NCBI GenBank assembly: GCA_029883565.1 | Contig: JAOUJD010000001.1 | Location: 1 to 47,496 of the forward strand | Direction of reading: 5' to 3' | DNA length: 47,496 nucleotides | From: Burkholderiaceae bacterium | GTDB lineage: Bacteria > Pseudomonadota > Gammaproteobacteria > Burkholderiales > Burkholderiaceae_F | In this document: positions 293 through 23,437 of the stretch, in pieces | Position numbering within the stretch: the first letter of the stretch is position 1 | Layout: the number at the start of each line of letters is the position of its first letter | Program-made: the position numbers and the translations under genes | Notes under the pieces: generated by a model | Told to the model about the DNA's origin: nothing | The model's database searches: none | The model's input: only the letters and a program-made list of their open reading frames with translations

Positions 293-358
293 ACCGCGCT
301 GCACATTGATATGCTGCGCACCAATCGAACCCCGGGGCACTGCCGTAACCCGTCGCGC

Positions 359-1825
359 ATGAAAGCCCTGCGCCCGCTCGCTGCCCTGGCCGTCGCCGCG
401 CTCCTCGCCGCGTGCCGGCCGGGAGGCGATGGCGCCGCCGCCCGCCTCGAACCTTGCCGCATTCCGGGCGTCGAACGTGAAGTGCGATGTGGAACAGTCA
501 CCGTCGCCGAGGATCCGGACCGGCCGACGGGGCCCGCAATCGACATTCGCTTCGCGGTCGTTCCGGCGGTTGCGCGCAACCAGCAGGCCGATCCAGTCTT
601 CGTGCTCGCCGGCGGTCCCGGGCAGGCTGCGACGCGCACCGCCCGGCAGATGCTGCCGGTCCTGAGCGAGGTCAATTCGCGGCGCGACATCGTCTTCGTG
701 GACCAGCGCGGCACCGGCGGATCACATCCGCTCGAGTGCGAGGTCGAGGAGACATCGCTGGCCGCGACCTTCGAGCAGACGCAGCAGCTCGACCACCTGC
801 GCGCCTGCCTGAAGGGATTGAAAGGCGACCTGCGCCAGTACGCGACGTGGATCGCGGTGCGTGACTACGACGCCGTGCGCGCGCGGCTCGGCGCCGAGCG
901 GATCAATCTATGGGGCGGCTCGTACGGAACGCGCGCTGCGCTCGAATACATGCGGCAGTACCCGGAGCGCGTGCGCAGCGCGGTGCTCGACGGAGTTGCG
1001 CCCGCGGACATGGTCCTGCCGGTGTCCTTCGCGATCGATGCCGACGCGGCGCTCGCGGCCCTCGCGGAGGTCTGCGCGCGCGACGATCGCTGCGCGCGCC
1101 GCTACCCCGACATGGCAAGCCGCGTGGAAGAACTGCTGGCGCAGGCGGACCGCGGCCTCGAGGTGCAGGTGCCGCACCCGCTGACCGGCGCGCCCGAGCC
1201 CGTGCGGCTGAACCGGCAGGTCCTTTCCTCGCTGCTGCGGGTGCCGCTTTACGCCCCGCAGCTCTCCGCGGTGCTGCCCTACGCGCTCGCAAGGGCGGCA
1301 CGCGGCGACTACACGGCACTGGTCGCCCTGAATTCGGCGGTAGCCAGCGGCGTGAACGAGAACTTTGCGGCTGGAATGCACTTCGCGGTGATCTGCGCGG
1401 AAGACGTGCCGCGCGTGGACGCGGAGCAGCGCGCGCGGGTGGCCGCCACCCGCTTCGGCGGCGCGTTCCTCGATGTCTACGAGCAGGCGTGCCGCGAGGT
1501 CCCGGTCCGTCCGGTTCCATCGTCGTTCTACGGGATCCCGGCCAGCAGGGCGCCGGTCCTGGTGCTGTCAGGAGGCCTCGATCCGGCGACACCGCCACGC
1601 CACGGCGAACGCGTGACCGAACGGCTGGGCAACGCGCGACACATCGTGTCGCCCTTCCTGGGGCACATCGTCAGTACGCAGGGCTGCGCGCCGACGCAGA
1701 TCGCGCGCTTCTTCCGCGACGCGTCCTTCGAGCGGATCGACGAAGCCTGCCTGACGCGACTGCCGCCGGCGACGTTCTTCGAACCCATCGTCGCGGCCCG
1801 GCCGGCGGGCAAGGATGCCCGATGA
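359..1825 (+). CDS. Alpha/beta hydrolase lipoprotein, S33 (tripeptidyl aminopeptidase / TAP-like) family
   Basis: There is a lipoprotein signal MKALRPLAALAVAALLAAC, with lipobox LLAAC and its Cys codon at 413-415. The nucleophile elbow is GGSYGT. The C-terminal TAP-like segment reads PVLVLSGGLDPATPP...GH. I prefer the ATG at 359 over the ORF-track start at 311 because it gives a canonical signal peptide. Confidence 0.75.
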   Translation: MKALRPLAALAVAALLAACRPGGDGAAARLEPCRIPGVEREVRCGTVTVAEDPDRPTGPAIDIRFAVVPAVARNQQADPVFVLAGGPGQAATRTARQMLPVLSEVNSRRDIVFVDQRGTGGSHPLECEVEETSLAATFEQTQQLDHLRACLKGLKGDLRQYATWIAVRDYDAVRARLGAERINLWGGSYGTRAALEYMRQYPERVRSAVLDGVAPADMVLPVSFAIDADAALAALAEVCARDDRCARRYPDMASRVEELLAQADRGLEVQVPHPLTGAPEPVRLNRQVLSSLLRVPLYAPQLSAVLPYALARAARGDYTALVALNSAVASGVNENFAAGMHFAVICAEDVPRVDAEQRARVAATRFGGAFLDVYEQACREVPVRPVPSSFYGIPASRAPVLVLSGGLDPATPPRHGERVTERLGNARHIVSPFLGHIVSTQGCAPTQIARFFRDASFERIDEACLTRLPPATFFEPIVAARPAGKDAR

Positions 1826-2574
1826 TCGAGGTCCAGCACCTGTCGAAGCGGTTCGAAGCGCGGGTCGAGGGCAGGCGGGCGCAGGTGGTCGCGATCGACG
1901 ACATCAGCTTCGTCGCCCACGACGGCCGCGTCACGGCGCTGCTCGGCCCCAATGGCGCCGGCAAGACGACCACGATGCGCGTCGTGGCCGGACTGGTGCA
2001 TGCCGACCGCGGCACGGCGCGCGTGGGCGGCGTCGACGTCGCCACCGACCCGCACGCGGTGCGGGCCCAGCTCGGCATGCTGTCGGATGCGCGCGGGCTG
2101 TACGGCCGGCTGACCGCGCGCGAGAACGTCCGCTATTACGCGGATCTGCGCCGCGTGCCGGGCGACGAGTGCGAGCAGCGCCTTGCCATGCTCTCGGACC
2201 TGCTCGACATGAAGGGCCTGCTGGACCGCCGGATCGAGGGCTTTTCAACCGGCGAGCGCATGAAGGTCGCGCTCGCGCGCGCCCTGATCCACGACCCGCA
2301 GCACCTGATCCTCGATGAACCCACCAACGGGCTGGACGTCGTGTCGACCCGAGCGCTGCGCCGCCTCCTGCTGCACCTGCGCGGCGCCGGCAAGTGCATC
2401 GTGGTCTCGACTCACATCATGCAGGAGGTGGAACAGCTGGCCGACGAGATCGTGATCGTCGCGCACGGCCGCACGATCGCGCGCGGAACCGCCGCCGCGA
2501 TCTGCGGCGAAGCCGGCACGGCGACGCTGGAAGACGCGTTCGTCGCGCTGGCCTACGCGGAGCCTGCGCGATGA
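1822..2574 (+). CDS. ABC transporter ATP-binding protein (ABC-2 / NatA-like)
   Basis: Walker A is GPNGAGKTT, the signature-like motif is FSTGERMKV, and Walker B is LILDEPTNGLD. The start ATG at 1822 overlaps the upstream stop (ATGA). The rest of long ORF 910-2574 is out-of-frame read-through of the hydrolase gene. Confidence 0.9.
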   Translation: MIEVQHLSKRFEARVEGRRAQVVAIDDISFVAHDGRVTALLGPNGAGKTTTMRVVAGLVHADRGTARVGGVDVATDPHAVRAQLGMLSDARGLYGRLTARENVRYYADLRRVPGDECEQRLAMLSDLLDMKGLLDRRIEGFSTGERMKVALARALIHDPQHLILDEPTNGLDVVSTRALRRLLLHLRGAGKCIVVSTHIMQEVEQLADEIVIVAHGRTIARGTAAAICGEAGTATLEDAFVALAYAEPAR

Positions 2575-3743
2575 CGACCGCCTGGGTCGTGTTCCGCAAG
2601 GAGCTGAAGGACGCGCTGCGCGATCGCCGCACCTGGATGATCGTTCTCGTCAGCTCGATCCTCGCCGGACCGATCGCGCTGCTGCTCCTGTCGACGTTCA
2701 TCGCGAGCGTCGAGGAGAACGTCGCTCGGCGCGAGGTCTACATGGTCGGGGCCGGTGCCGCTCCGACCCTTGTCAACTTCATCCAGCGCGCGGGCGGCAC
2801 CGTGAAGGAGGCCCCGGCCGGTTTCCGCGAGCAGGTCGCTTCCGGCGAATTGCAGAACGCCGTCGTCATCGTGCCAGCGGACTTCGAGGCCCGCCTCGCC
2901 CGCGGCGAGTCGATCCGTCTGGATGTCGTATTCGACGACACCTCGACTCGCAGCCAGGGCCCGTCACGCGCCACGCTGACGCTGCTGCGCGCGTTCAGCC
3001 GGGAACTCGGCAGCCAGCGGCTGATGGCGCGGGGAGTCAGCCTCCAGGTGCTGGCGCCCGTGGAGGTCGAGGAGATCAACCTGGCTGCCAGCAAGTCGCG
3101 CGGGGCCCAGCTGCTGTTCCTGGTGCCATGGCTCGCCCTGCTCGGCGCGGTGGTCGGCGCCATCAGTGTCGCCATCGACGTGACCGCCGGCGAACGGGAG
3201 CGGGGCTCCCTCGAACCCCTGTTGATGAACCCGGTGTCCACGCCCGCCATCGTGCTCGGCAAGTGGGCCGTGGTGGCGAGCTGTTCGGCCGCCGTCGTGG
3301 TCCTGACGCTGCTCGGGTTCCGCACGGCAATGATGTTCATCCGGAACGAGAGCCTGTCCGCGCTGATGCAGTTCGGCGCGGCCGAGTCCGGGCTGTTCCT
3401 CGCCATGCTGCTGCCGTTCGCGGCCATGGTCGCCGCCGTCAACATGTTCGCCGCCACCTACGGCCGCAGCCACAAGGAAGCGCAGACCTACGCGAGCTAC
3501 CTGACGATGCTGGTCAACTTCGCCCCCGTGATCCCGCTGTTCCTGTCGGTGCGCGACGCAACATGGCAGTTGTTCGTGCCGGCCATGGCGCAGCAGGGCG
3601 TCATGATGCGGGCGCTGCGTGGCGAGGCCATCGGAGCGGTCGATATCCTGCTGCCTGGCGTCATCGCGCTGGCGATCACCGCTCTCGCCCTGGGCGCGCA
3701 GGCACGCTTGCTGCAGCACGAACGCATCGTGTTCTCACGCTAG
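2571..3743 (+). CDS. ABC-2 type transporter permease (NatB-like) with a large extracytoplasmic loop after TM1
   Basis: The ATG at 2571 overlaps the ATPase stop (ATGA). There is an N-terminal TM (WMIVLVSSILAGPIALLLL), a soluble loop of about 190 aa, then about 5 further hydrophobic helices. This is typical NatB / ABC2_membrane topology. Confidence 0.8.
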   Translation: MTTAWVVFRKELKDALRDRRTWMIVLVSSILAGPIALLLLSTFIASVEENVARREVYMVGAGAAPTLVNFIQRAGGTVKEAPAGFREQVASGELQNAVVIVPADFEARLARGESIRLDVVFDDTSTRSQGPSRATLTLLRAFSRELGSQRLMARGVSLQVLAPVEVEEINLAASKSRGAQLLFLVPWLALLGAVVGAISVAIDVTAGERERGSLEPLLMNPVSTPAIVLGKWAVVASCSAAVVVLTLLGFRTAMMFIRNESLSALMQFGAAESGLFLAMLLPFAAMVAAVNMFAATYGRSHKEAQTYASYLTMLVNFAPVIPLFLSVRDATWQLFVPAMAQQGVMMRALRGEAIGAVDILLPGVIALAITALALGAQARLLQHERIVFSR

Positions 3744-3819
3744 ACGACGGCATTGGCGGGGGTTTCGCGGCTTTTCCCGAGATGGGCGCGCACAGGTCCG
3801 GTGCGATAATCGGCGATCC

Positions 3820-5232
3820 ATGTCCGAACCGCTGACCGCCACCGTTCCGCAGGCTGCGTCCGACGAGCCGGTGCCGCCGAAATCGATCGGCCGCTTCACG
3901 ATCCTCAACGAGATCGGACGCGGTTCGTACGGTGTCGTCTACGCGGCGCATGACCCGGTGCTGGGCCGGGAAGTGGCGATCAAGGTCATCCCGCTGTCGC
4001 GCGAGGAACAGTTCCGAACGCAGATGGAGGCGAGCTTCCTGCGCGAGGCAAAGTCGGCCGGCGGGATGAGCCATCCGAGCATCGTCACGATCTACGACGC
4101 CGGCAAGACCGAGTCGCTGGCCTACATCGCGATGGAACGACTGCACGGCCAGGACCTGCACGAGTACCTGGCGAGCGGCAACCGGATGAGCCCGCGGCAG
4201 GCAGCCGCGATGATGATGCGGGTGGCCGACGCCATCCACTACGCCAACAAGCGCGGCCTGGTTCATCGCGACATCAAGCCGAGCAACATCTTCCTGTCGC
4301 GCGACCTCAAGCCCAAGCTCCTCGACTTCGGCACGGCGCTCGCCCCGGTGGCGGACGCGCCGAAGAACGGCTCGAGGCAGCTGGTCGGCACCCCGAACTA
4401 CATGTCGCCCGAGCAGGCCAAGGGCGAGTCGCTCGACGCGCGCAGCGACATCTTCTCGCTCGGGTCCATCCTCTACGAACTGCTGGCCGGGCGACGCGCC
4501 TTCGACGGTCGCACGATCGACGAGACGCTCGACCAGGTGCTGACGGCTGCGCCCAAGCCGGTCGAGAAGATCCGGCCCGACACGCCCCCTCCCCTGGCCC
4601 AGGTCGTGCGAAAGGCGATGTCGCGCGACCCGGCCGAGCGCTACCAGAAGGCCTCCGAACTGCGCAACGCCCTCGCCGAGTTCGTCGACGGATCCCGGCC
4701 GTCGTCGGTCGACGCATCGGTCCCGGCTCCGCCCGAGGGTGCGGTCGCTCCTGCCGCGCAATCACGACGGACGATGTCGGTGCTGATCGGCCTCCTGACG
4801 CTGGTCGGTGCGGCTGGCATCGGAGTCGCGCTGCTGAATCGGGAGCCGCCGGCCCCGCCGCCGCAGCAGGTCGTCGTTCCAACGCCTGTCATTCCGCCGA
4901 TGACTCCGCCGCCTCCCGCGACCCAGCCAACCGGGCCCATGACGGCCGGCGCCGAGACGGCGAAGGCGGAAAGCAAGGCGGCCCAGCGCAAGCGCGCGGA
5001 AGTGGCGGTCGCAGCGCCGCCACCCACCGATGGCACCATCGTCATCGCGGTGGCGCCGTGGGGCGAAGTGGTCGTCGACGGCGCCGTGCAGGGCGTCTCG
5101 CCACCGCTGACGCAGCTCAAGCTGCCGGCGGGGATGCATTCGATCGAGATCCGCAACGGATCATCGCCACCGTTTTCCGCCCGCGTCGAGTTGCGGGCCG
5201 GCGAGAAGCTGCAGATCCAGCATCGGTTCTAG
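3820..5232 (+). CDS. Transmembrane Hanks-type Ser/Thr protein kinase with a C-terminal (periplasmic) PEGA domain
   Basis: All canonical kinase motifs are present: G-loop GRGSYGVVY, VAIK, HRDIKPSN (HRD at 4264-4272), DFG (4324-4332), GTPNYMSPE and DIFSLG. A single TM (MSVLIGLLTLVGAAGIGVALL, about 4774-4836) is followed by a Pro-rich linker. The PEGA-like domain is IAVAPWGEVVVDG...LPAGMHSIEIRN (5029-5229). Confidence 0.9.
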   Translation: MSEPLTATVPQAASDEPVPPKSIGRFTILNEIGRGSYGVVYAAHDPVLGREVAIKVIPLSREEQFRTQMEASFLREAKSAGGMSHPSIVTIYDAGKTESLAYIAMERLHGQDLHEYLASGNRMSPRQAAAMMMRVADAIHYANKRGLVHRDIKPSNIFLSRDLKPKLLDFGTALAPVADAPKNGSRQLVGTPNYMSPEQAKGESLDARSDIFSLGSILYELLAGRRAFDGRTIDETLDQVLTAAPKPVEKIRPDTPPPLAQVVRKAMSRDPAERYQKASELRNALAEFVDGSRPSSVDASVPAPPEGAVAPAAQSRRTMSVLIGLLTLVGAAGIGVALLNREPPAPPPQQVVVPTPVIPPMTPPPPATQPTGPMTAGAETAKAESKAAQRKRAEVAVAAPPPTDGTIVIAVAPWGEVVVDGAVQGVSPPLTQLKLPAGMHSIEIRNGSSPPFSARVELRAGEKLQIQHRF

Positions 5233-5427
5233 TGCGCCGCCCCTGCCGGGCAGCCGCTGCCGGACTCGGGGAAGCGTCCGCGTGTTGACGGACGGCAAGG
5301 ACAACGACGACCGATGCGGCGGATTGCCGCCCTTTTCCGCGCTTCGGGCCGTTGTGACCCCCCGCCGCATCGTCTAGCCTCCTCGAATCGGGAGTCCGCC
5401 GGCATCGCTCGTCGAGCCGTCGTCGTC

Positions 5428-6906
5428 ATGGCAGAAGCGCTGACGCACAACCTCAAGCTGATCGGCCGCTATTCCATCCTGCGCGAGCTGCGACGGGACC
5501 GGTACACGGTCGCCTACCTGGCGTTCGACCCGGTACTGAACCGCGAACTCATCCTGAAGGCGGTCCAGTTGCGACCGCCACCGGGGCAGGAAGCGACGGG
5601 CCACGACCGCATCGATCAGGCGTTCATGCGCCAGGCCCAGGCCGCAGGACGCCTGCACCACCCCCATATCGTCACGGTGTTCGACGCCGGGCGCGTGCAC
5701 AACATCGGTTACCTGGCGCTGGAAAGGGTCGACGGCAAACTGCTCGACGAGGCGATGGCGGAGGGCTTCCGTCCCGGTTTCCTGCAGGCGGCCGACATCG
5801 CAGCACGCATCGCGGATGCCATCGAATACGCGCACGCGCGCGGCGTGCCGCACGGTCACCTCGGCGCTTCCCGCATCTACCTGCAGGGGCCCGAGCGGTC
5901 GCCCAAGGTGATGGGTTTCGGCGGCTGGATCGACAGCGGAGCCACCGGCGACTTCGAACTTGCCGCGACCGAGGTCCTGCTGCCGTTTTTCGAAAGCGAA
6001 CTCAGCCCCGAGGCGCGGCGCAAGGACGTGCGAGCGCTCGGCGCCCTGCTGTTCCTGCTGCTGACCGGCACCCGCCCGGACCTGAAGGCACTGCGCGATC
6101 GGCGCGGCGGCGAAAGCGCCATCATCGACATGCGGCCCGCGGCTCCGCTCGCGCTTGCCGAAATCGCGGAAAGCGCGCTGGAGCTGCGCAACCTGCGCCC
6201 GTTCGGTACCGCTGCGCAGATGCGCAATGCCCTCACCACCTACCTGTGGGGCAGCCGCGAGGCACACGGGCTGCCGAACGCGGCAACGATCACGGGCGCA
6301 CCCGCGCGCCTCGAGATTGCACCGGCCGCGGCAACGCTCGCAGTGCCCACCATGGAAGCCGCCGCGCCGCCAGCGCGGGTGCGCGGTGGCCGCCGGACCA
6401 GCCGGTTCCTGGGCGTCGGCGCGCTGGGCGCAGCGGTTCTTGCGATGCTCGCGATTGCGAGTACGGCGCTGACTGGAGGCGGCGAGCGCGAGCGCGTCAC
6501 CGATCGGGCGGCGGCCGGTTCCGCGGTTGCGTCGGACCCGATGCCCGCGCCCGCGGCCACGGCCACGGCTGCACCCCCTGCGCGGGCAAGCACGCCGGCG
6601 CCATCGGCACAACCCGCCCAGAGAACGTCCGCGCAGACAACCCGGTTCGGGGTCTCGTCCGAGCGCCCCGTTCGGACGGCCGCCGCAGCCCCGGGCAGCG
6701 AGGGCGTCGTCGAGCTCGCGGTGGCGCCGTGGGGCGAGGTGTTCGTCAACGGCGCAGCGCGTGGCACGACCCCGCCACTGCAGCACCTGACGCTGCCCGC
6801 CGGCCGCCACACCATAGAACTGCGCAACGGCGATCGGCAACCGTACATTGCCCAGGTCGTGGTTGCCCCGGACCGGCCGCAGCAGATCACCTACCGTTTC
6901 CAGTAG
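5428..6906 (+). CDS. Predicted pseudokinase: Ser/Thr-kinase-fold paralogue with degenerate catalytic motifs, one TM and a C-terminal PEGA domain
   Basis: The overall architecture matches the upstream kinase, but the catalytic motifs are degenerate. The G-loop is LRRDRYTVAY (no Gly). HRD is replaced by HGH (5851-5859, context PHGHLGASRIYL). DFG is replaced by GFG (5914-5922). No APE motif is present. The beta3 Lys context is retained (ELILK). The TM is FLGVGALGAAVLAMLAIA. The PEGA domain is LAVAPWGEVFVNG...LPAGRHTIELRN (6703-6903). Confidence 0.8.
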   Translation: MAEALTHNLKLIGRYSILRELRRDRYTVAYLAFDPVLNRELILKAVQLRPPPGQEATGHDRIDQAFMRQAQAAGRLHHPHIVTVFDAGRVHNIGYLALERVDGKLLDEAMAEGFRPGFLQAADIAARIADAIEYAHARGVPHGHLGASRIYLQGPERSPKVMGFGGWIDSGATGDFELAATEVLLPFFESELSPEARRKDVRALGALLFLLLTGTRPDLKALRDRRGGESAIIDMRPAAPLALAEIAESALELRNLRPFGTAAQMRNALTTYLWGSREAHGLPNAATITGAPARLEIAPAAATLAVPTMEAAAPPARVRGGRRTSRFLGVGALGAAVLAMLAIASTALTGGGERERVTDRAAAGSAVASDPMPAPAATATAAPPARASTPAPSAQPAQRTSAQTTRFGVSSERPVRTAAAAPGSEGVVELAVAPWGEVFVNGAARGTTPPLQHLTLPAGRHTIELRNGDRQPYIAQVVVAPDRPQQITYRFQ

Positions 6907-6915
6907 GCTCGCGCC

Positions 6916-7362
6916 ATGATGCGGATTCGACGCCACTCCGCCACAGCCAGCGCCGCGCTGCTCGCACTGCTCGCCGGCTGCGCGACCCCGCCCCCGCCGC
7001 CACCCGCGCCACCGACCGTGAGCATCGCGCGCCTGTACGAGCAGCCGGCCGAGCGCGCGTTCCTGAACGCTCTCAGGTTCTACGAGGAAGGCCAGTACGA
7101 GCGCGCCGAAACGCTGTTCCGGCGGGCGCTCGCCGACGGCCTGAAGGACGCGCACGACGCCGCGACCGCGAACAAGCACCTCGCCTTCATCGCGTGTGCC
7201 TACGGTCGCCTGGCGGAATGCGAAACCGACTTCCACTCGGCCTTCGCCGCCGACCCGGATTTCGCGTTGACGCAGGCCGAGGTCGGGCACCCCGTCTGGG
7301 GTCCGGTCTACAAGCGGGTCGCCGCCGAGTGGGGGGCGGGAAAGACGCCCGCGAAGAAGTAG
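6916..7362 (+). CDS. Small lipoprotein with a TPR-like helical region
   Basis: The signal and lipobox are MMRIRRHSATASAALLALLAGC, with the Cys codon at 6979-6981, followed by a poly-Pro linker. A helical repeat-like segment reads AFLNALRFYEEGQYERAETLFRRAL. The C-terminal motif is GHPVWGPVY. The gene starts 9 bp after the pseudokinase stop. Confidence 0.7.
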   Translation: MMRIRRHSATASAALLALLAGCATPPPPPPAPPTVSIARLYEQPAERAFLNALRFYEEGQYERAETLFRRALADGLKDAHDAATANKHLAFIACAYGRLAECETDFHSAFAADPDFALTQAEVGHPVWGPVYKRVAAEWGAGKTPAKK

Positions 7363-7410
7363 CGCCAGCGCACGCGCGGCCGCGATTTCAGCGCGCGCAC
7401 GCGATGCGCC

Positions 7411-8400
7411 CTAGAACCCGATGCGGGACTTCCTCGCCACCCGCTCGTCCATGACGTCTTCCGGCAGCACGGCATTGCGACCGGCGAGCTTCGCGTTGCC
7501 GAACGCGGCCAGCATGGCCCGGCGCATCTCGCGCGGGCTGAGGCGCGCCAGCCGGTCGAGGCTCTCGGCGTCGAGGTCGTCCGGAAACGCGCGCCCCCAC
7601 GCATGCTCGCCGCGTAGTTCGTCGTAAATGCCGCGCGCGATGCGACGGGCGCCTTCCTCGTCGGGCGCGTCGATCTCGTAGACATTCATCCGGTTCAGGA
7701 TCGGTTCCGGGATCGAACGGGCGTCGTTCGCGGTCGCGATCCACACGACGTCCGACGCGTCGATCGGGACCTCGGCGAACTCGTCGACGAACTCGGCCGC
7801 CGTATCGTGCTCGAGAAGCGTGTACAGGCTGCCCAGCGGGTCGTACTGTGCGTCGCCGCCCGCCTTGTCGATCTCGTCGACCACGATGACCGGGTTCGCG
7901 TAATCGCCCTTGACCAGCGCATCGAACACCTTGCCCGGCTTGGCGTTCTTCCACTGGGCCGAGGCGCCCGACAGGATCCAGCCAGCGGTGAGCGAACTCA
8001 TGCCGATGAAGTTGTGCCCGGTTCCGAGCAGCTTCGCCAGGCGACGCGCGAAATGCGTCTTGCCGATACCCGGGTCCCCGAGCAGAAGGATGGGCTCGAG
8101 CTCGAGCGGATCGTCGGACGACAGGCACAGCGCGAGCTGCTTGCGGATGTCCTCGAGCGGCGCCCCGAAGTTCGGCAGCTCCTCGACCAGAGCGTCGATG
8201 TCCGGCAGCGCCGAGGGCTTGATCACGAAGCGCTGGCCGCCGGTGCGGATCATGCGAAGGTAGGTGGCGCGCAGCGCCTCGTTGGCGCCCGAGCCCAGCT
8301 CCTGCAACCCGTTGAGCGCCTCCTCGACGCGCGGGACGCGGTACACGTCCTTGAAGCCGGCGATCGATATCGGGGTCGGGATCGTTGCAGGCAGGCTCAT
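7411..8400 (-). CDS. AAA+ ATPase (classical Lon/FtsH-like AAA module, no protease or other effector domain)
   Basis: Walker A is LLLGDPGIGKTHFA and Walker B is VIVVDEIDKA. The sensor-1 region is WIATAN and the Arg-finger region is PEPILNRM. I chose the ATG at 8400 (MSLPATIP..., GGGAG upstream) rather than the ORF-track start at 8655. Confidence 0.8.
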   Translation of the reverse strand: MSLPATIPTPISIAGFKDVYRVPRVEEALNGLQELGSGANEALRATYLRMIRTGGQRFVIKPSALPDIDALVEELPNFGAPLEDIRKQLALCLSSDDPLELEPILLLGDPGIGKTHFARRLAKLLGTGHNFIGMSSLTAGWILSGASAQWKNAKPGKVFDALVKGDYANPVIVVDEIDKAGGDAQYDPLGSLYTLLEHDTAAEFVDEFAEVPIDASDVVWIATANDARSIPEPILNRMNVYEIDAPDEEGARRIARGIYDELRGEHAWGRAFPDDLDAESLDRLARLSPREMRRAMLAAFGNAKLAGRNAVLPEDVMDERVARKSRIGF

Positions 8401-8608
8401 GCGCGCGCTCCCGTGCGTCGGGCACCGGTGCGCTCGCCGCCGGCACGCTGCGCAATGCCGTGCACCTGCCCGGACAGACTGCGCGTGTGGAATTCCATTG
8501 CCGTTGGGCCCCGGCTGGCTCGAGTATCCCTGCGATCGGTCACGTTGGCTCCTAGGACGCGGCAGCTGGCTACAGAGATATATAGGCAACCCGCTTCCCG
8601 GATTCTGC

Positions 8609-8654
8609 AAAAAGACGGCCAAAAAGCAATGGCACTCGCGGGGCGAGAGTGCCA
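8609..8654 (-). terminator. Rho-independent terminator downstream of narL
   Basis: The minus strand reads TGGCACTCTCGCCCCGCGAGTGCCA (7 bp outer stem TGGCACT/AGTGCCA plus inner CGC/GCG), followed by TTGCTTTTTGGCCGTCTTTTT. It lies 47 nt after the narL stop. Confidence 0.6.
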
Positions 8655-8701
8655 AGCGGGCGGCGAGTCCGGATGGATGAGGTGTGGCGCGGCCTGAGGC
8701 G

Positions 8702-9355
8702 TCAGACCGGGACGCGCAGTCCCTGTTCGGACGCCCAGACCGCCGCTTCCACGCGGGAGCGGAATCCGAGTTTCTTCAGCAGGTGCTTCACGTGCACCTT
8801 GACCGTGCCCTCGGTGATGGAGAGGTTGCGCGCGATCACCTTGTTGCTCTGCCCGCCTGCCAGGCACTTCAGAACGGCGAGTTCGCGGTCGGTCAGGTCG
8901 CGGACGTCGCGCCGTTCGCCGCGCGCCTCGTCGCGCAGAGCGCCCGCGAGCGCGGCCGTCAGCGCGTCGCTGATGACGGTGCGGCCCTCGAGCGCGTCGC
9001 GCACGCGCGCCAGCAGCTGCTCGGGCTCCATGTCCTTGAGAAGGTAGCCGTCAGCGCCGGCCCGGATCGCGGCCATCAGGTCCTCGGGGGCGTCGGACAC
9101 GGTCAGCATGACCACGCGCCGCGAAGGGTCCTCTTCCTTCAGCGCCGACAGGATCTCCAGGCCGCCACTGCCCTTGAGGTTGAGGTCGAGCAGCGTCAGG
9201 TCCGGCTCCTTCTCGGCCGCCAGCCGGACGGCCGCCTCGTAGTCGCCGGCTTCGCCCACGACCTCGAAGCCCGGATCGAGCTGCAGCAGCTGGATCACGC
9301 CGCGGCGAAACAGCGGATGGTCGTCGACGACCAGGATCGTATGGCGTTCTGTCAT
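8702..9355 (-). CDS. narL: Nitrate/nitrite response regulator NarL (receiver + LuxR-type HTH)
   Basis: The receiver domain reads ILVVDDHPLFRRG...LLDLNL. The C-terminal HTH reads LTDRELAVLKCLAGGQSNKVIARNLSITEGTVKVHVKHLLKKLG. The start overlaps the narX stop (TGATG). Confidence 0.9.
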   Translation of the reverse strand: MTERHTILVVDDHPLFRRGVIQLLQLDPGFEVVGEAGDYEAAVRLAAEKEPDLTLLDLNLKGSGGLEILSALKEEDPSRRVVMLTVSDAPEDLMAAIRAGADGYLLKDMEPEQLLARVRDALEGRTVISDALTAALAGALRDEARGERRDVRDLTDRELAVLKCLAGGQSNKVIARNLSITEGTVKVHVKHLLKKLGFRSRVEAAVWASEQGLRVPV

Positions 9356-11262
9356 CAGGAAGTTCCCAGTTCGGTGGACGCGCCGAGCGGCGCTGGCGGC
9401 GGGCCGAACGCCGTCTGCGCATTGAAGGTCAGCCGCACCCGGGTGCCGACCGGATCGCGGCGTTCGATTACAAGCACTCCGCCGACCGACTGCGCGCGGT
9501 CACGCATGATGGACAGGCCGAAGTGGCCGCGCGGGGACGAGGGGCTCACGATCCCGATGCCGTCGTCCTCGACGCAGACGTCGATCGCCTGCCCCTGGCC
9601 GCGGTGCAGCGACACCCAGGCATGGCGCGCGTGCGCGTGATGCTCGACGTTCGTCAGGGCCTCGCGCACCACCTGCAGCACGTGCACCTGTTCGTTGGCC
9701 GACAGCTCGACCCGCAGCAGGTCGTTGACCAGCGTGGCCCGCACGCCGGAACGGCGCTCGAATTCAGCCACGGTATCGCGCAGGGCGCCGGCGAAGCCTT
9801 CGTCGCCGAGGCCGAGCCGGAACGTCGTCAGCAGTTCACGCAGCTCCCGGTACGCGCTGTTGATTCCTTCGCGCAGCTCCCCGAGCACGGCGGCCGACTG
9901 CGGAGCGCTGTCCTCGCGCTCGATATGTGCCGCGAGCCGCGCGATCTGGATCTTGGTGTACGACAGGGACTGCGCGAGCGAGTCGTGCAGTTCGCGCGCG
10001 ATGGCGGCCCGTTCCTCCAGCACGCCGAGTCGCCGGTGCTCGTCGCGCCGCTCGGCAGCCGCCAGCGCCGCGCCGACGTGACGGCCCATCGTCTCGGCCA
10101 GTTCCAGCTGCCACACTTCCAGTCCCTTGCCGGGCGGCAGCACCAGCGGCATCACCCCGTAGGAGACGCCGCCCTCGAGCAGCGGAATGCCGAGGATGCG
10201 CCGCTCACCGGCCTCGCCGGGTTCGGTCCGCCAGGTGACTTTCGCGCCGTCGGCGCAATTGCGGCAGTCGACGCCGCCGCAAGCCTTGATCGTGCTCTCG
10301 TCGCGCGCCAGCGGCATGCCGCGCGTGCTGTCCCCGTGGATCGAACAGATCACCCCGCTTTCCACTCCAAGCGCCTTGCGTACCATCGCCAGCACGCGCT
10401 TGAGTGATTCGGTGTCCACCGGCTTCTCGGCCAGCATGCGCGTTGTCTCGTACAGCAGGGCCAGCGACTCGTTGCGGCGTTCCAGGTCGCGGGTCTTCTC
10501 GGCGACCTGCTTCTCGAGCGAGCCGTACAGGCGCGACAGGTCGTCGACCATGAAGTTGAAGGCCTGGCCGAGCTGCCCGATCTCGTCGGGTCCTGTGCTT
10601 GCCGCCCGCACCCGGAAGTCGCCCGTGCGCACTCTCTTCGCGGCCTCGGCCAGGCGCGCGATCGGCTGGAACACCTCGATGTTCAGCAGGAACAGGGCCG
10701 CCACCACCAGCATCATCATCACGAAGAAACCGACGCCGAGCACCAGGCGCAGCCGCTGGATCCTGCTTTCGAGATCGGTCTCGATCTGACGGACGAGGAC
10801 GTCCACCTTGCTGACGAATGTCGGGACAACACCGAGGAACTCGGCGCGGGACACTTCGTCATCGACGGCTCGCCGCGCCAGCGGCTTGATGCGCGACTCC
10901 CACTCGATGACGATGCCGGAATAGATCCGGTGCACGGGATTGGCGCCGTCGTCCGGAATGCCGCTCATCAGCGAGGGGCTCTTCAGGCGCCGCTCGAATT
11001 CGGTGATCGCTGCCTCGGCCGCATGCTGCCGGTCCTCAGCGGCGCCGCGCGTATCCGCCACCCGCGTGGACAGCGCGTACGACTGCATACGCAGCGAGCC
11101 AGCCATGTTGATCGCGCTCGCCTTGCCCGTCGACTGCTCGGTGAAGACGGTCGCCGCCACGATGATCGACAGGGCCAGCAGTGCCACCACGGACAACACC
11201 AGCCCGACCCGGATCAGGGTCGAGTCCGACCACACGCGGCGCAGCGAAGCGAAGGAAGTCAT
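9355..11262 (-). CDS. narX: Nitrate/nitrite sensor histidine kinase NarX
   Basis: It has two TMs flanking a periplasmic domain with a P-box-like motif, INMAGSLRMQSYAL. A HAMP region is present, and the H-box is ARELHDSLAQSLSY. The C-terminal HATPase reads VEDDGIGI. I chose the ATG at 11262 (MTSFASLRRVW). Confidence 0.9.
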   Translation of the reverse strand: MTSFASLRRVWSDSTLIRVGLVLSVVALLALSIIVAATVFTEQSTGKASAINMAGSLRMQSYALSTRVADTRGAAEDRQHAAEAAITEFERRLKSPSLMSGIPDDGANPVHRIYSGIVIEWESRIKPLARRAVDDEVSRAEFLGVVPTFVSKVDVLVRQIETDLESRIQRLRLVLGVGFFVMMMLVVAALFLLNIEVFQPIARLAEAAKRVRTGDFRVRAASTGPDEIGQLGQAFNFMVDDLSRLYGSLEKQVAEKTRDLERRNESLALLYETTRMLAEKPVDTESLKRVLAMVRKALGVESGVICSIHGDSTRGMPLARDESTIKACGGVDCRNCADGAKVTWRTEPGEAGERRILGIPLLEGGVSYGVMPLVLPPGKGLEVWQLELAETMGRHVGAALAAAERRDEHRRLGVLEERAAIARELHDSLAQSLSYTKIQIARLAAHIEREDSAPQSAAVLGELREGINSAYRELRELLTTFRLGLGDEGFAGALRDTVAEFERRSGVRATLVNDLLRVELSANEQVHVLQVVREALTNVEHHAHARHAWVSLHRGQGQAIDVCVEDDGIGIVSPSSPRGHFGLSIMRDRAQSVGGVLVIERRDPVGTRVRLTFNAQTAFGPPPAPLGASTELGTS

Positions 11263-11370
11263 GTGCCGATTTTCCCACTGAAGTCCGCGGCCCACGGCGT
11301 TGCGAAGGGACTGCTCCGCGGCCGGCTACCTCTGGGGCGCCATTCTGGCGCCCCGTTCGATTCCGCCTTC

Positions 11371-11386
11371 TACCCCTGTCGTGGTA
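11371..11386. promoter_or_regulatory. Candidate NarL 7-2-7 heptamer pair
   Basis: The sequence is TACCCCT-GT-CGTGGTA. The first heptamer fits TACYYMT. The second fits 5 of 7 positions of AKRRGTA. It lies in the narX/narK1 divergent intergenic region, about 53 bp upstream of the candidate FNR box. Confidence 0.35.
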
Positions 11387-11424
11387 GGCCCGCTTTCCTC
11401 CGAGGGCCAAAGGTCCGGAGCGCC

Positions 11425-11438
11425 TTGATTTGGGTCAT
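11425..11438. promoter_or_regulatory. Candidate FNR/Anr/Dnr-type box upstream of narK1
   Basis: TTGAT-TTGG-GTCAT is compared with the consensus TTGAT-N4-ATCAA. A -10-like TAGCTT at 11460-11465 would put the box near -41, the class II geometry. The narK1 ATG is at 11506. Confidence 0.45.
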
Positions 11439-11505
11439 GAAAACGGGGGGCTCCGCCTCTAGCTTGCACCCCAACGCGCGCTTTTGATTGATCAAGGAGA
11501 CCGCA

Positions 11506-12798
11506 ATGGAGGCAGGAGCGGGCAGTTCCCGCGGGGCAGGCACCAGCCTGCGGGCCAGGCAGTGGTCCGTGGTGGTGATGAGTACGCTCGCATTCACGGT
11601 GTGCTTCGCGGTCTGGATGATGTTCGCGGTGATCGGCATCCCGATCAAGAAGATGCTCGATCTCAACGCGACCCAGTTCGGCCTGCTGACGGCCACCCCG
11701 GTGCTGACCGGTTCGCTGGTGCGCGTGCCACTCGGCATGTGGACCGACAAGTACGGCGGCCGGATCGTGTTCTTCGCGCTGATGATGTCGACCGTCATCC
11801 CGATCTGGCTGATCGGATATGCGACCGAATTCTGGCAGTTCCTCGTGCTGGGTCTGTTCGTCGGACTCGCCGGCGGGTCGTTCTCGGTCGGCACGCCGTA
11901 CGTCGCGCGCTGGTTCGACAAGCAGCACCAGGGCTTCGCGATGGGGGTGTTCGGGGCCGGCAACTCGGGCGCGGCAGTCAACAAGTTCGTCGCTCCAACC
12001 ATCGTCGTCGCGTTCGGATGGATCTTCGTACCACAGGTCTACGCGATCGCGATGCTCGTCACGGCGATCGCGTTCTGGATGTTCACCTACAGCGACCCGA
12101 AGCACCTGGTGCCGGCGAACATCACGTATCGCCGCCAGCTCGAGTGCCTGCGCGATCCGAGAGTGTGGAAGTACTGCCAGTACTACTCGATCGTGTTCGG
12201 CGGCTACGTCGCCCTGTCACTGTGGATGGTCAACTACTACGTCGGCGAGTTCGGCCTGGACATCCGCATCGCCGCGCTGCTGGCCGCCTGCTTCTCGCTG
12301 CCGGGCGGCGTGCTGCGCGCCATCGGTGGCTGGATGGCGGACAAGTGGGGCGCGCACCGGGTGACCTGGTGGGTGATGTGGGTCAGCTGGATCTGCCTGT
12401 TCCTGCTCGCCTACCCGGCCACGAGCTACACGGTGCAGACCATCAGCGGACCGGTGACGTTCACGCTCGCCCACAACGTGTGGTCGTTCACCTTCCTGAT
12501 GTTCCTGCTCGGCATCGCCTGGGCCTTCGGCAAGGCCTCGGTGTTCAAGTACATCGCCGACGAGTTCCCCAGCAACATCGGAACCATCTCGGGCGTCGTC
12601 GGCCTGGCCGGCGGCCTGGGCGGCTTCGTGCTGCCGATCATGTTCGGGGCACTCCTCGACCTCACCGGCGTGCGCTCGACCGCGTTCATGCTGATGTACG
12701 CCGTGGTCTGGGTGTCGCTGATCTGGATGTACTGGACCGAAGTCCGCCGCGCGGAAGTGATCGGTCCCCGTTCAACCGAATTCAGCCTGAAGGGCTGA
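11506..12798 (+). CDS. narK1: MFS nitrate/nitrite transporter NarK1
   Basis: This is a 12-TM MFS protein with NarK-like motifs (GMWTDKYGGR, FGAGNSGAA, GGWMADKWG). The ATG at 11506 is preceded by AAGGAG. The ORF-track start at 11488 is a TTG inside the RBS region. Confidence 0.9.
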   Translation: MEAGAGSSRGAGTSLRARQWSVVVMSTLAFTVCFAVWMMFAVIGIPIKKMLDLNATQFGLLTATPVLTGSLVRVPLGMWTDKYGGRIVFFALMMSTVIPIWLIGYATEFWQFLVLGLFVGLAGGSFSVGTPYVARWFDKQHQGFAMGVFGAGNSGAAVNKFVAPTIVVAFGWIFVPQVYAIAMLVTAIAFWMFTYSDPKHLVPANITYRRQLECLRDPRVWKYCQYYSIVFGGYVALSLWMVNYYVGEFGLDIRIAALLAACFSLPGGVLRAIGGWMADKWGAHRVTWWVMWVSWICLFLLAYPATSYTVQTISGPVTFTLAHNVWSFTFLMFLLGIAWAFGKASVFKYIADEFPSNIGTISGVVGLAGGLGGFVLPIMFGALLDLTGVRSTAFMLMYAVVWVSLIWMYWTEVRRAEVIGPRSTEFSLKG

Positions 12799-12825
12799 TC
12801 CCCCTCCACCGCAAAGGACTCCGCC

Positions 12826-14472
12826 ATGAGCGCCGTCACCCCTGCCACGACTCCGCCCAAGCCGACCTCCGGCGTCGACATCGTCGACTGGCGCCCGGAG
12901 GACGCGACCTTCTGGGACACGACCGGAAAGCGCGTCGCCTACCGCAACCTGGCGATCTCGGTCCCCAGCCTGCTCTGCGGCTTCGCCGTGTGGTTGATGT
13001 GGGGAATCATCACCGTGCAGCTGGCCAACCTGGGGTTCCCGTTCTCCCAGCAGCAGTTGTTCACCCTGGCCGCGATCTCGGGGCTGTCCGGCGCGACGCT
13101 GCGCATTCCGGCATCGTTCTTCATCCGGCTGGCGGGCGGACGCAACACGATCTGGCTCACGACCGCGCTGCTGATGATTCCCGCCATCGGAACCGGCATC
13201 GCGCTGCAGGACAAGGCGACGCCGCTGTGGGTGTTCCAGCTGATGGCGCTGCTGTCCGGCATCGGCGGCGGCAACTTCGCCTGCTCGATGTCGAACATCA
13301 ACACCTTCTTCCCGAAGCGGCTGCAGGGCACCGCGCTGGGCATCAACGCCGGCCTGGGCAACTTCGGCGTCACCACGATGCAGGTCGTGATCCCGCTGGT
13401 GATGACGACGGCCGTGTTCATGTCGCTCGGCGGCGACCCGATGACGCTGCTCAAGCCATCGGGCACGCTGATCGGCAAGATCCCCCAGGGCACGCCGACC
13501 TACATCCAGAACGCCGGCTTCATCTGGCTGGTGCTGCTGGTGCCGCTGGCGATCGTCGGCTGGTTCGGCATGAACAACCTGCTGACGATCTCGCCCAACA
13601 TCGGGTCCACGGCCGCCGCATTGGGCAAGATCCTGCTGCTCTACGGCGTCGCGCTCATCACGGCCGGCATCGGCCTGTACCTGTACCTGCCCGCGACGGG
13701 GCTCGGCGTGCTCAACATGTGGGTCGCGATGCCGCTGATCATCGTCGGCACCCTGCTGGCGATGAAGCTGGTCGCCTTCGGCGACATGAAGCCGAACCTG
13801 AAGAAGCAGTTCGAGATCTTCAAGGACAAGCACACGTGGTCGATGACGCTGCTGTACATCGTCACGTTCGGTTCCTTCATCGGCTTCTCCAACGCGCTGC
13901 CGCTGTCCATCACGGTGATCTTCGGGCAGAGCCACGTGCTCGGGCCCGACGGCGTGGTCAGGCACGTTGCCAACCCGAACGCGCCTTCGGCGCTGACCTT
14001 CGCCTGGATCGGCCCCTTCGTCGGCGCCCTGATCCGTCCGGTCGGCGGCTGGATTTCCGACAAGGTGGGCGGCTCCATCGTCACGCAGATCATCTCCATC
14101 GTGATGGTCGGGGCCTCGGTCGCGGTCGGCTACGTGATGATGCTGGCGTACGGCTCCGCCACGCCGGAACAGTACTTCTGGCCGTTCCTGTGGCTGTTCA
14201 TCGTCCTCTTCGCGGCCAGCGGCATCGGCAACGGCTCGACGTTCCGGACCATCGGCGTGATCTATGACCGCACCCAGGCCGGCCCGGTGCTCGGCTGGAC
14301 GTCGGCGGTCGCCGCCTACGGCTCGTTCGTCGCACCGGTCGTCATCGGCGAGCAGATCAAGGCCGGAACGCCGCAGTACGCGATGTACGGGTTCGCGATC
14401 TTCTATGCGCTGTGCCTGGTCCTGAACTGGTGGTTCTACCTGCGCCGCAACGCGTACGTGAAGAACCCCTGA
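12826..14472 (+). CDS. narK2: MFS nitrate/nitrite antiporter NarK2
   Basis: This is a second NarK-type MFS protein (GGNFACSMSNINTFFPKRLQGTALGINAGLGNFG), lying immediately upstream of narG as in narK1K2GHJI operons. Confidence 0.9.
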   Translation: MSAVTPATTPPKPTSGVDIVDWRPEDATFWDTTGKRVAYRNLAISVPSLLCGFAVWLMWGIITVQLANLGFPFSQQQLFTLAAISGLSGATLRIPASFFIRLAGGRNTIWLTTALLMIPAIGTGIALQDKATPLWVFQLMALLSGIGGGNFACSMSNINTFFPKRLQGTALGINAGLGNFGVTTMQVVIPLVMTTAVFMSLGGDPMTLLKPSGTLIGKIPQGTPTYIQNAGFIWLVLLVPLAIVGWFGMNNLLTISPNIGSTAAALGKILLLYGVALITAGIGLYLYLPATGLGVLNMWVAMPLIIVGTLLAMKLVAFGDMKPNLKKQFEIFKDKHTWSMTLLYIVTFGSFIGFSNALPLSITVIFGQSHVLGPDGVVRHVANPNAPSALTFAWIGPFVGALIRPVGGWISDKVGGSIVTQIISIVMVGASVAVGYVMMLAYGSATPEQYFWPFLWLFIVLFAASGIGNGSTFRTIGVIYDRTQAGPVLGWTSAVAAYGSFVAPVVIGEQIKAGTPQYAMYGFAIFYALCLVLNWWFYLRRNAYVKNP

Positions 14473-14495
14473 GATTCCGCTGCGGAGACAAGCCA

Positions 14496-17400: not shown

Positions 17401-18275
17401 CGAACGGCCACGTGGCCGTGAAGGCCTGGAACGCGCTGTCGAAGATCACCGGGCGCGAGCACGCGCACCTCGCGCTGCACCGCGAGGACGAGAAGATCCG
17501 CTACCGCGACGTGCTGGCTCAGCCGCGCAAGATCATCAGCTCGCCGACCTGGTCGGGGCTCGAGAGCGAGAAGGTCTCGTACAACGCCGGTTACACCAAC
17601 GTGCACGAGCTGATCCCGTGGCGCACGCTCACCGGCCGCCAGCAGTTCTACCAGGACCACCCCTGGATGATCGCGTTCGGCGAGGGTTTCTCCAGCTACC
17701 GGCCGCCGATCGACCTCAAGACGACCGCGGGCATCCACAACATCAGGCCCAACGGCAACCCGGAGATCCTGCTCAACTTCATCACGCCGCACCAGAAGTG
17801 GGGCATCCACTCCACCTACAGCGACAACCTGATGATGCTGACGCTGAACCGCGGCGGCCCGGTGATCTGGCTGTCGGAGGACGACGCGAGGAAGGCCGGC
17901 ATCGAGGACAACGACTGGGTCGAGCTCTTCAACATCAACGGCGCGATCGCGGCGCGCGCGGTGGTCAGCCAGCGCGTCAATCCCGGCATGACGATGATGT
18001 ACCACGCGCAGGAGAAGATCATCAACACGCCGGGCTCCGAGATCACCGGCGTGCGCGGAGGCATCCACAACTCGGTCACCCGCATCGTGACCAAGCCGAC
18101 GCACATGATCGGCGGCTACGCCCAGCAGAGCTACGGTTTCAACTACTACGGGACCATCGGCACCAACCGCGACGAGTTCGTCGTCGTGCGGAAGATGAAG
18201 AAGGTCGACTGGCTGGACACGCCGCGCGACGACCACCTCGCGAAGGCCTACCAGTCGCAGGGCGAGAACCCGTGA
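14496..18275 (+). CDS. narG: Respiratory nitrate reductase alpha subunit NarG
   Basis: It is near-colinear with E. coli NarG: MSHFLDRL..., [80 protein letters not shown], and a C-terminal [11 protein letters not shown]. Confidence 0.98.
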   Translation: [1259 protein letters not shown]

Positions 18276-18303
18276 TCCAACGCCGATCGGAGAGGAACTG
18301 AAC

Positions 18304-19827: not shown

Positions 19828-19829
19828 CC

Positions 19830-20528: not shown

Positions 20529-20538
20529 GGAGCATTCC

Positions 20539-22067: not shown

Positions 22068-22085
22068 CGAGCCCCGGGGGGGACC

Positions 22086-23405: not shown

Positions 23406-23437
23406 CCTTCGATTCGTTCCCGCCTGGGTTCGCCCCG

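Follow-up and report, generated by a model that had tools for sequence, protein, structure and literature searches.

Three consecutive genes on the forward strand of a 47,496-nucleotide stretch of a Burkholderiaceae bacterium (assembly GCA_029883565.1, contig JAOUJD010000001.1, positions 1 to 47,496; hereafter the window, about 69% G+C) are proposed to encode one trans-envelope sensing receptor, in which a catalytically dead kinase paralogue would act as the allosteric partner or scaffold of an active receptor kinase. We give this reading a probability of about 45%. The active kinase gene product (3820..5232) is named K and the pseudokinase paralogue (5428..6906) PsiK, and the third gene (6916..7362) encodes a lipoprotein of the TssQ family. 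An initial annotation of the same DNA, made from the sequence alone, had described K and PsiK as a tandem pair and overlooked the third partner; the conserved unit is three genes.

ORF calling showed that two plus-strand open reading frames (ORFs) fill the interval 3820-6906, with starts supported by orthologue alignments at 3820 for K (MSEPL...) and at 5428 for PsiK (MAEAL...). The longest PsiK ORF begins at 5314 and extends into the K-PsiK spacer; the orthologues start at the MAEAL/MPEAL position. The spacer (5233-5427) measures 195 nt, and 9 nt separate the PsiK stop from the start of the lipoprotein gene.

K is a Hanks-type Ser/Thr receptor kinase of 470 aa, composed of a kinase domain at residues ~23-290, a transmembrane helix at 321-339 (nt 4780-4836), an Ala/Pro-rich linker and a PEGA-type ectodomain at 403-470 (nt 5026-5229). 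It matched Pkinase at E = 4.8e-49 and Mycobacterium tuberculosis PknB at E = 3.8e-47. The fold and all the catalytic motifs that define a Hanks-type kinase (PF00069) are present, namely GRGSYGVVY, VAIK, the alphaC Glu, HRDIKPSN, DFG and SPE, in agreement with the initial annotation, which had credited the first protein with every catalytic motif. A motif census of the related loci found the upstream kinases canonical at every catalytic motif in 49 of 49 cases.

PsiK, a plus-strand product of 492 aa, has the same layout, with a kinase-fold domain at residues 10-280 (nt 5455-6267), a transmembrane helix at ~327-347 (nt 6406-6468), a disordered linker and a PEGA-type ectodomain at 425-492 (nt 6700-6903). 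The shared kinase-transmembrane-linker-ectodomain arrangement that had been ascribed to these adjacent same-strand genes was recovered, with one transmembrane helix and one C-terminal PEGA-type beta-sandwich in each protein. The single hydrophobic helix, at residues 321-339 in K and 327-345 in PsiK, carries an Arg-rich N-terminal flank in both proteins, as expected for an N-in/C-out topology. K and PsiK align as paralogues along their entire length (30% identity, E = 1e-51 by BLASTP).

Judged by its motif losses, PsiK is a true pseudokinase and is predicted to be catalytically dead. Its Pkinase match is marginal (E = 7e-8; 32.6 bits against a cutoff of 31.7). When PsiK was aligned to StkP and PknB, LRRDRYT was found at the glycine-rich loop, HGH at HRD and GFG at DFG, the APE motif was missing, and the catalytic-loop Lys and Asn were replaced by Ala and Arg. 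The alignment upheld both the losses and the positions given for them previously (HGH at 5851-5859, GFG at 5914-5922, no APE). Two further points had escaped the earlier description: the alphaC Glu is replaced by Gln, and the beta3 Lys is kept (ILK, K44). This Lys is the only one of the Hanks catalytic residues tested that PsiK retains, on a preserved kinase fold.

The replacing residues are themselves conserved. LRRDR (L21-R25; 5488..5502), which stands in for the glycine-rich loop, is invariant in a 27-sequence family alignment (A1), as is GFGGWID (G163-D169; 5914..5934), which replaces DFG; HGH (H142-G143-H144; 5851..5859) occupies the place of HRD. All three lie on the plus strand. The motif census showed that the beta3 Lys, RQAQA, HG(H/Q) and GFGGW are common to 54 of 54 PsiK orthologues, and that nearly all of them have a loop of the RRDR/RRER type. 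The beta3 motif reads (L/V/A)(I/V/L/T)(L/V/I)K, with Lys in 54/54 and K44 invariant.

The full-length AF2 model of PsiK was confident for the kinase fold (1-280), the transmembrane helix (331-347) and the beta ectodomain (425-490); within the kinase domain, the activation-segment stretch 165-181 alone was uncertain. A Foldseek search of the model against the PDB returned the kinase domains of Stk1 and PknB with a probability of 1.0.

Substitution rates indicate that PsiK is clearly under purifying selection. The ratio of nonsynonymous to synonymous substitution rates (dN/dS), a check that the initial annotation had proposed for the pseudokinase, was calculated by the Nei-Gojobori method for the window against relatives at 91% and 95% identity, and amounted to 0.06-0.08 for the kinase-like domain of PsiK, 0.23-0.24 for its linker and 0-0.015 for its ectodomain, with 0.057 for the lipoprotein and 0.14 for the C-terminal two-thirds of K. 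The mean pairwise identity of the kinase domains was 0.65 for PsiK versus 0.75 for K, PsiK being the slightly faster-evolving one. Several hundred full-length relatives of PsiK were found at 58-95% identity, and a scan of one genome per species yielded about 61 genomes that carry it, with identities of 37-83%, all of them uncultured Burkholderiaceae/Burkholderiales metagenome-assembled genomes (MAGs) from soil and peat. Of 64 related loci, 53 had PsiK in one unbroken ORF, and the splits occurred mostly in assemblies in which the kinase, ABC-2 permease, AAA or TssQ genes were split too. The earlier view that the gene is maintained rather than decaying was borne out by this intactness, by the dN/dS of the kinase-like domain and by the motifs kept in every orthologue. 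The loci with split ORFs are mostly MFD MAG assemblies plus one hybrid assembly. In ten loci, mostly MFD contigs (L025, L028, L033, L034, L036, L040, L041, L057, L060 and L063), many genes are frameshifted, PsiK among them, and intactness statistics from such frameshifted contigs need care.

The order kinase-pseudokinase-TssQ-like gene was observed by tblastn and ORF analysis in every one of the related loci that extended far enough, about 60 of the 64, and the survey of relatives that had been suggested for the K/PsiK pair accordingly returned K/PsiK adjacency in each locus long enough. The same order is found in lineages whose PsiK is at 37-54% identity and whose other neighbours are different. 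Upstream of K, the genes for an alpha/beta-hydrolase, an ABC ATPase and an ABC-2 permease keep their synteny in the closer loci, about 40 in number, and are missing in divergent lineages that keep the three genes; since this synteny is limited to the closer lineages, the conserved core consists of three genes. Four of the 64 related loci lack the TssQ-like gene directly 3' of the PsiK gene; the others have it there. In the window it encodes, on the plus strand, a predicted TPR-like outer-membrane lipoprotein of 148 aa with the lipobox LAGC (residues 19-22, Cys22), which scored 82 bits on NCBIfam NF038027, 'TssQ family T6SS-associated lipoprotein' (cutoff 65; T6SS, type VI secretion system). 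A lipobox-like motif was present in 49 of 57 lipoprotein orthologues. The Bacteroidota TssQ and the Proteus tssQ were considered as the meaning of the name and set aside as name coincidences, being different proteins or positional gene names.

The ectodomains of K and PsiK are 51% identical, the computed value bearing out the 34 of 67 identical positions counted earlier by hand, and have in common the conserved motifs PWGE...PPL...IE(I/L)RNG. The PEGA label that they had been given holds in part. Both window proteins fall under the Pfam gathering threshold for PEGA (PF08308; 18.4 bits for K and 18.9 bits for the PsiK ectodomain, threshold 20.8); PEGA was matched at E <= 0.01 by 19 of 27 PsiK orthologues and by 28 of 31 diverse wider-family ectodomains (the best at E = 1.7e-10), and by these profile matches the term 'PEGA-type' is justified at the family level. 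An AF2 model of the PsiK ectodomain alone gave a seven-stranded beta-sandwich with a predicted local distance difference test score of 93. In Foldseek, its top match was chain B of 9k1u, which is PpkA of the RtkS-PpkA complex (E = 2.6e-4, the sole match below 1e-3), with chain D at E = 1.2e-3 and template-modelling scores of 0.67-0.73; transthyretin-like and carboxypeptidase-regulatory sandwiches came next. A profile built from the 31 diverse ectodomains, which is an independent sequence test, likewise ranked 9k1u_D first (E = 7e-4). In Serratia, the periplasmic domain of PpkA is bound by RtkS, on which PpkA stability and Fha phosphorylation depend (PMC6082577). The structural and profile matches together indicate that the window ectodomains are homologous to the domain by which a T6SS kinase docks its envelope regulator. 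With the predicted topology, they correspond to the bitopic Hanks kinase with a regulator-binding periplasmic domain that belongs to T6SS threonine phosphorylation.

Several of the top PDB matches to PsiK were the L33D and D76A mutants of PknB, substitutions that break the back-to-back N-lobe dimer, by which the alphaC helix is kept in its active position (PMC13434768). The aligned counterparts of PknB R10/L33/D76 are R/L/D in K and R14/L37/D86 in PsiK, the latter three being invariant in the 27-sequence alignment. The triad is RLD in 49/49 K proteins, R(L/M)D in 52/54 PsiK proteins and R(L/I)D in 100 of ~113 wider-family members. In the MviN pseudokinase, too, the analogous Leu and Asp are retained and serve its own back-to-back dimer (PMC12599244). 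Retention of the R/L/D triad is the main, indirect indication from the alignments that PsiK may pair through its N-lobe. The heteromeric pair put forward by the initial annotation fits the strict adjacency of the two genes and the presence of the PknB dimer residues in both proteins; the contact between K and PsiK itself stays a prediction. In an alignment of PsiK with PknB (A4, 5428-6327), a 6-residue deletion was observed in PsiK just before the alphaG region, near PknB V222, a residue whose mutation was reported to disrupt the front-to-front dimer (PMC13434768). To judge from this alignment, PsiK may have lost the front-to-front interface and kept the back-to-back one.

In the mechanism that we propose, the TssQ-like TPR lipoprotein would be anchored in the outer membrane, and K and PsiK would be single-pass inner-membrane proteins, each with a kinase-fold domain in the cytoplasm and a PEGA-type beta-sandwich in the periplasm. 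By analogy with Serratia PpkA/RtkS, the ectodomains would be docking sites for a periplasmic or outer-membrane partner, most likely the lipoprotein. A change in the envelope would alter the contact between lipoprotein and ectodomains, and the altered contact would unite the cytoplasmic domains back to back by their N-lobes, where both proteins keep counterparts of PknB R10/L33/D76. The dead PsiK would then serve as a dedicated allosteric activator or scaffold for K, which would autophosphorylate and go on to phosphorylate cytoplasmic targets.

A profile search of 1.84 billion representatives placed the locus in a wider family of 436 proteins at E <= 1e-30. About 20 of the 436 are RRDR/HGH/GFGGW pseudokinases, and the remainder are mostly canonical kinases (HRD or HCD) with the kinase-transmembrane-PWGE...IEIRNG layout. 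A large canonical subgroup (P0258, P0265, P0266 and many others) has HCD in place of HRD, that is, non-RD kinases. Other members are independently degenerate: P0305 (L078:2616-4268) with VAIN, HGA and GFG; P0309 (L079:6693-8687) and P0295 (L080:9255-10958) with HGN and an alphaC Gln; and also P0304, P0376 and P0387. Pseudokinases seem to have arisen several times in the PEGA-ectodomain kinase family. No adjacent active kinase was found beside the degenerate members of the P0305, P0309 and P0295 types in the contigs seen.

Outside the clade, a TssQ-like gene directly followed the kinase in 5 of 6 sampled contexts, with scores of 120-144 bits on a custom hidden Markov model (HMM). The sampled contexts included ribH-nusB-kinase-TssQ-like, two-component genes and a divergent PP2C phosphatase. 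On three unrelated metagenomic contigs (L079:6693-10223, L080:8066-11353 and L081:538-6453), a single kinase of this layout lies between ribH-nusB and TolQ/TolR-type genes (MotA_ExbB, ExbD). L080 and L081 have the TssQ-like gene after the kinase, and L081 also has a YbgC-like 4HBT gene before the TolQ/TolR-type genes; no TssQ-like ORF was found in L079. The ribH-nusB-kinase-TssQ-like contexts look like the start of a tol-pal cluster and point to a link with the cell envelope, not with T6SS. Because the TssQ-like gene accompanies the kinase in such varied contexts, kinase plus TssQ appears to be a general two-gene envelope module of which T6SS is one context, and the studied clade added a pseudokinase between the two genes.

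The T6SS context was found on chromids of Burkholderia stagnalis and B. arboris, whose records are unannotated and whose ORFs were called and scanned in this analysis. Both carry a T6SS cluster of TssE, Hcp, TssC, TssB, TssA, a Hanks kinase (785-840 aa), TssM, TssL, TssK and TssJ with a divergent bona fide TssQ (L072:1-15309 and L073:1-15267). The best TssQ-like match there scored 127 bits on NF038027, and this TssQ adjoins TssJ, TssK, TssL, TssM, a 785-aa Hanks kinase, TssA, TssB, TssC and Hcp. The kinase ends in an ectodomain of the window type (VRFNVRPWGDIYVNGARRGASPPL...IEIRNG) at 41-43% identity, with 43% to that of K, and its TssQ is 38% identical to the window lipoprotein. On the custom HMM, the T6SS-cluster TssQ was more distant from the window lipoprotein, at 58-62 bits. 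No publication describing this Burkholderia kinase/TssQ pair was found.

Several observations weigh against a K-PsiK-lipoprotein receptor. The domain anatomy, the dead active site, the purifying selection, the three-gene linkage, the PpkA ectodomain homology and the Burkholderia linkage of kinase and TssQ to T6SS were all observed; the K:PsiK heterodimer, the binding of the lipoprotein to the ectodomains, the direction of regulation and the output are inferred. Since the R/L/D triad is conserved family-wide, its retention in PsiK fits PsiK homodimers as easily as K:PsiK heterodimers. The PsiK ectodomain is slightly closer to tol-linked kinases (57-58% identity) than to the neighbouring K (49-51%), and the PsiK kinase domain is closest to the K clade by a margin only, so that co-evolution of K and PsiK is not demonstrated; a simple recent tandem duplication as the origin of PsiK was likewise not clearly supported. 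Most wider-family members have a single kinase plus TssQ, and a pseudokinase is consequently not needed for the basic mechanism. The 195-nt spacer means that K and PsiK might be under separate regulation; a consensus scan for promoters and terminators over 3600-7600, including the spacer, found none. Lastly, no T6SS core gene (TssA/B/C/E/J/K/L/M, Hcp) was present in the 1.16 Mb made up by the window and the flanks (up to 10 kb) of the 64 related loci, where the association with T6SS core genes that marks the TssQ family is accordingly missing. FHA and PP2C domains were absent from the window ORFs scanned, as had been noted before, and from the Pfam lists of the related loci L001-L003, which leaves the kinase without the cognate FHA substrate and PP2C phosphatase of T6SS threonine phosphorylation.

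These absences also bear on a different output, in which the module would be a post-translational regulator of a T6SS encoded elsewhere, a detached threonine-phosphorylation input of the PpkA/TagE type. The TssQ match above the cutoff, the bona fide TssQ with a same-ectodomain kinase within the Burkholderia T6SS cluster and an ectodomain homologous with the one in the T6SS kinase PpkA of Serratia all speak for it. No Fha or PppA was found, though, any more than a core gene, and the nearest TssQ-like relatives are those beside tol-pal, two-component or PP2C genes, the T6SS-cluster TssQ scoring far fewer bits; we regard this reading as rather unlikely. It is unlikely, too, that PsiK is a negative regulator or decoy that competes for the lipoprotein or for the dimer interface of K and holds K off until a signal arrives. 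An ectodomain fold, conserved surface motifs and an N-lobe triad like those of K would suit a competitor, and the existence of single-kinase relatives without a pseudokinase suggests that the extra copy may be a brake and not an essential activator. Sequence cannot tell an activator from an inhibitor, but back-to-back pairing of the PknB type activates (PMC13434768), and a partner on that face would be expected to activate as well.

PsiK could instead be mainly a substrate or scaffold, its linker or activation segment being phosphorylated by K and phospho-PsiK recruiting an effector, much as FhaA is recruited once PknB has phosphorylated the tail of the MviN pseudokinase (PMC12599244). The activation-segment region holds two invariant or near-invariant residues, Thr173 and Thr181, the disordered linker is long, and the invariant new motifs RRDR, HGH, GFGGWID and TGDFEL suggest a conserved binding surface. 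This role is nevertheless distinctly improbable, given that T181 is the structural Thr of the P+1 loop, that the linker is the least constrained part of the protein (dN/dS 0.23) and that no FHA-domain gene occurs in the window or the flanks scanned. Very improbable is a PsiK that is not dead, in which Lys44, Asp24, His142/His144 and Asp169 would form a non-canonical active site anew and support kinase or some other nucleotide-dependent activity. The replacement residues do not vary and are charged or polar, and the beta3 Lys is likewise invariant, which sets PsiK apart from the seven described families (bioRxiv 10.1101/2025.01.12.632604), yet the joint losses comprise the Gly-loop glycines, the alphaC Glu, the HRD Asp, the Lys and Asn of the catalytic loop, the DFG Asp and APE, the region of Asp169 was modelled at low confidence (residues 165-181), and no solved structure with this motif set was found. 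As for a decaying duplicate without function, its chance is practically nil: the marginal Pkinase score and the split ORFs in about 10 loci would agree with decay, which is refuted by the low dN/dS, by ORF intactness, with most splits falling alongside neighbour-gene splits in the same assemblies, and by the recurrence of one motif set across 37-95% identity. Allosteric partnership or scaffolding of K by PsiK within one receptor is the reading that we retain, and it fits the strict K/PsiK adjacency together with the PknB dimer residues found in both proteins.

A broader proposal is more tentative still, and we consider it doubtful as a whole. PsiK would represent an eighth bacterial pseudokinase family (RRDR, beta3 Lys, alphaC Gln, HG(H/Q), GFGGWID), an obligate heterodimer partner of the adjacent K that shares a lipoprotein co-receptor with it; its Arg-rich pocket and Lys would bind a regulatory anionic ligand, and modules of kinase and TssQ, at T6SS, tol-pal and other loci, would serve generally to sense envelope state, with repeated origins of pseudokinases. 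If true, the locus would be a bacterial counterpart of the eukaryotic receptor kinase/pseudokinase pairs. Bacterial pseudokinases have been catalogued and are almost entirely uncharacterised; here a strictly conserved three-component system gives the partner kinase and the likely periplasmic co-receptor by gene order, which makes the allosteric-partner hypothesis directly testable. The locus also links the named but undescribed TssQ lipoprotein family to a class of PEGA-ectodomain kinases, and the kinase/TssQ pairing, which extends well beyond T6SS loci and occurs beside tol-pal, bears on how Gram-negative bacteria sense the state of their envelope.

The neighbouring genes were also surveyed. 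Upstream on the plus strand, 311-3743 holds the alpha/beta-hydrolase (TAP-like), ABC ATPase and ABC-2 permease genes and is separated from the K gene by a 76-nt gap; the ABC ATPase (1822-2574) and the ABC-2 permease (2571-3743; Pfam ABC2_membrane) lie directly upstream of K, and their membership in the module is uncertain. Convergent to the module on the minus strand is an AAA ATPase (7411-8655), a Lon-like ATPase module without the protease domain, which adjoins the module in most loci and is 74-89% identical across the clade. Its orthologues have about 330 aa, and the true start is probably downstream of the longest-ORF start. A respiratory nitrate reduction block follows at 8702-24411, with narL, narX, two narK-type MFS genes, narG, narH and narI, narJ being inferred, and then NnrS and a hemerythrin-domain protein; the narX orthologue in L003 carries a PilJ-type sensor domain. 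Other genes of the window encode a HerA-like ATPase, YebC, PurD, RNase G, lipopolysaccharide-core glycosyltransferases, MsbA and DnaE, and the remainder of the window is ordinary chromosome.

Among known systems, Serratia marcescens PpkA (TagE) with RtkS resembles the locus: PpkA, too, is a bitopic Hanks kinase, its small periplasmic beta-sandwich is what the window ectodomains match best in structure and sequence profile (9k1u), and this domain binds a dedicated envelope regulator, encoded nearby, that controls kinase activity (PMC6082577). The candidate partner in the window is a 148-aa TPR-like lipoprotein, whereas that in Serratia is the 328-aa periplasmic RtkS. The window also has a second, dead kinase copy and no Fha, PppA, TagF or T6SS core genes nearby, and its ectodomain is only about 20% identical to that of Serratia PpkA. 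The Burkholderia T6SS-cluster kinase and TssQ (L072/L073) resemble the locus in that the same ectodomain (41-43%) and a TssQ lipoprotein (38%) are encoded at one locus, but there a single 785-aa kinase without a pseudokinase stands among TssA, TssM, TssL, TssK and TssJ, and it lacks the R and D of the back-to-back triad (E/L/H). In the Pseudomonas aeruginosa TagQRST-PpkA-Fha1-PppA pathway, an outer-membrane lipoprotein sensor likewise acts upstream of a bitopic Hanks kinase, and an ABC transporter is encoded beside the kinase (PMC13584744). P. aeruginosa PpkA has, however, a periplasmic domain with a fold different from the Serratia one (PMC6082577), TagQ and TagR showed no relationship to TssQ in the comparisons made, the transporter TagTS falls under COG4591/COG1136 (PMC13584744) and the permease of the window under the ABC-2 type, and neither Fha nor PppA is encoded at the window locus.

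PsiK was further compared with pseudokinases. M. tuberculosis MviN (ActPs3) is a membrane pseudokinase with the N-lobe back-to-back residues that works with an active Hanks kinase, PknB (PMC12599244). It differs in being actinobacterial, fused to a lipid II flippase-like protein, without the beta3 Lys and with a large activation-loop deletion, and MviN is not encoded beside its kinase, whereas PsiK is. Assignment of PsiK to ActPs3, a family marked by a large activation-loop deletion and by loss of the beta3 Lys along with the other two catalytic motifs, was rejected, as PsiK has no large activation-segment deletion relative to PknB and keeps the beta3 Lys. The GLW family resembles PsiK in being proteobacterial and membrane-anchored and in having lost the HRD Asp and DFG Asp (PMC12599244; bioRxiv 10.1101/2025.01.12.632604), and PsiK, which comes from Burkholderiaceae MAGs and has a transmembrane helix (residues 327-347), agrees with it in host and anchoring. 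The defining marks of GLW pseudokinases are a GLW motif where HRD would stand and Leu/Trp (LLLL/W) where the beta3 Lys would be (PMC12599244), and this assignment was rejected too, since PsiK has HG(H/Q)L in 54/54 and the beta3 Lys in 54/54. All seven described bacterial families show loss of the beta3 Lys (bioRxiv 10.1101/2025.01.12.632604); with HG(H/Q) and an invariant Lys, PsiK is not GLW and fits none of the seven. All known members of the PsiK family come from MAGs, and this may be why a catalogue based on RefSeq and UniProt does not include them.

In eukaryotic pairs of the HER3 type (EGFR family) and in RAF/KSR, a dead paralogue keeps the fold and the dimer interface and acts as an allosteric partner. 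The window pair would differ from the eukaryotic receptor kinase/pseudokinase pairs in dimer geometry and has evolved independently, and its pairing is a prediction. A 2025 review of bacterial pseudokinases lists seven families, their functions unknown, and as far as term searches show it mentions neither a heterodimer nor an adjacent partner kinase. Judged by its homologies, the locus is a receptor kinase of the PpkA/TagE type with a putative envelope regulator, carrying an undescribed pseudokinase family.

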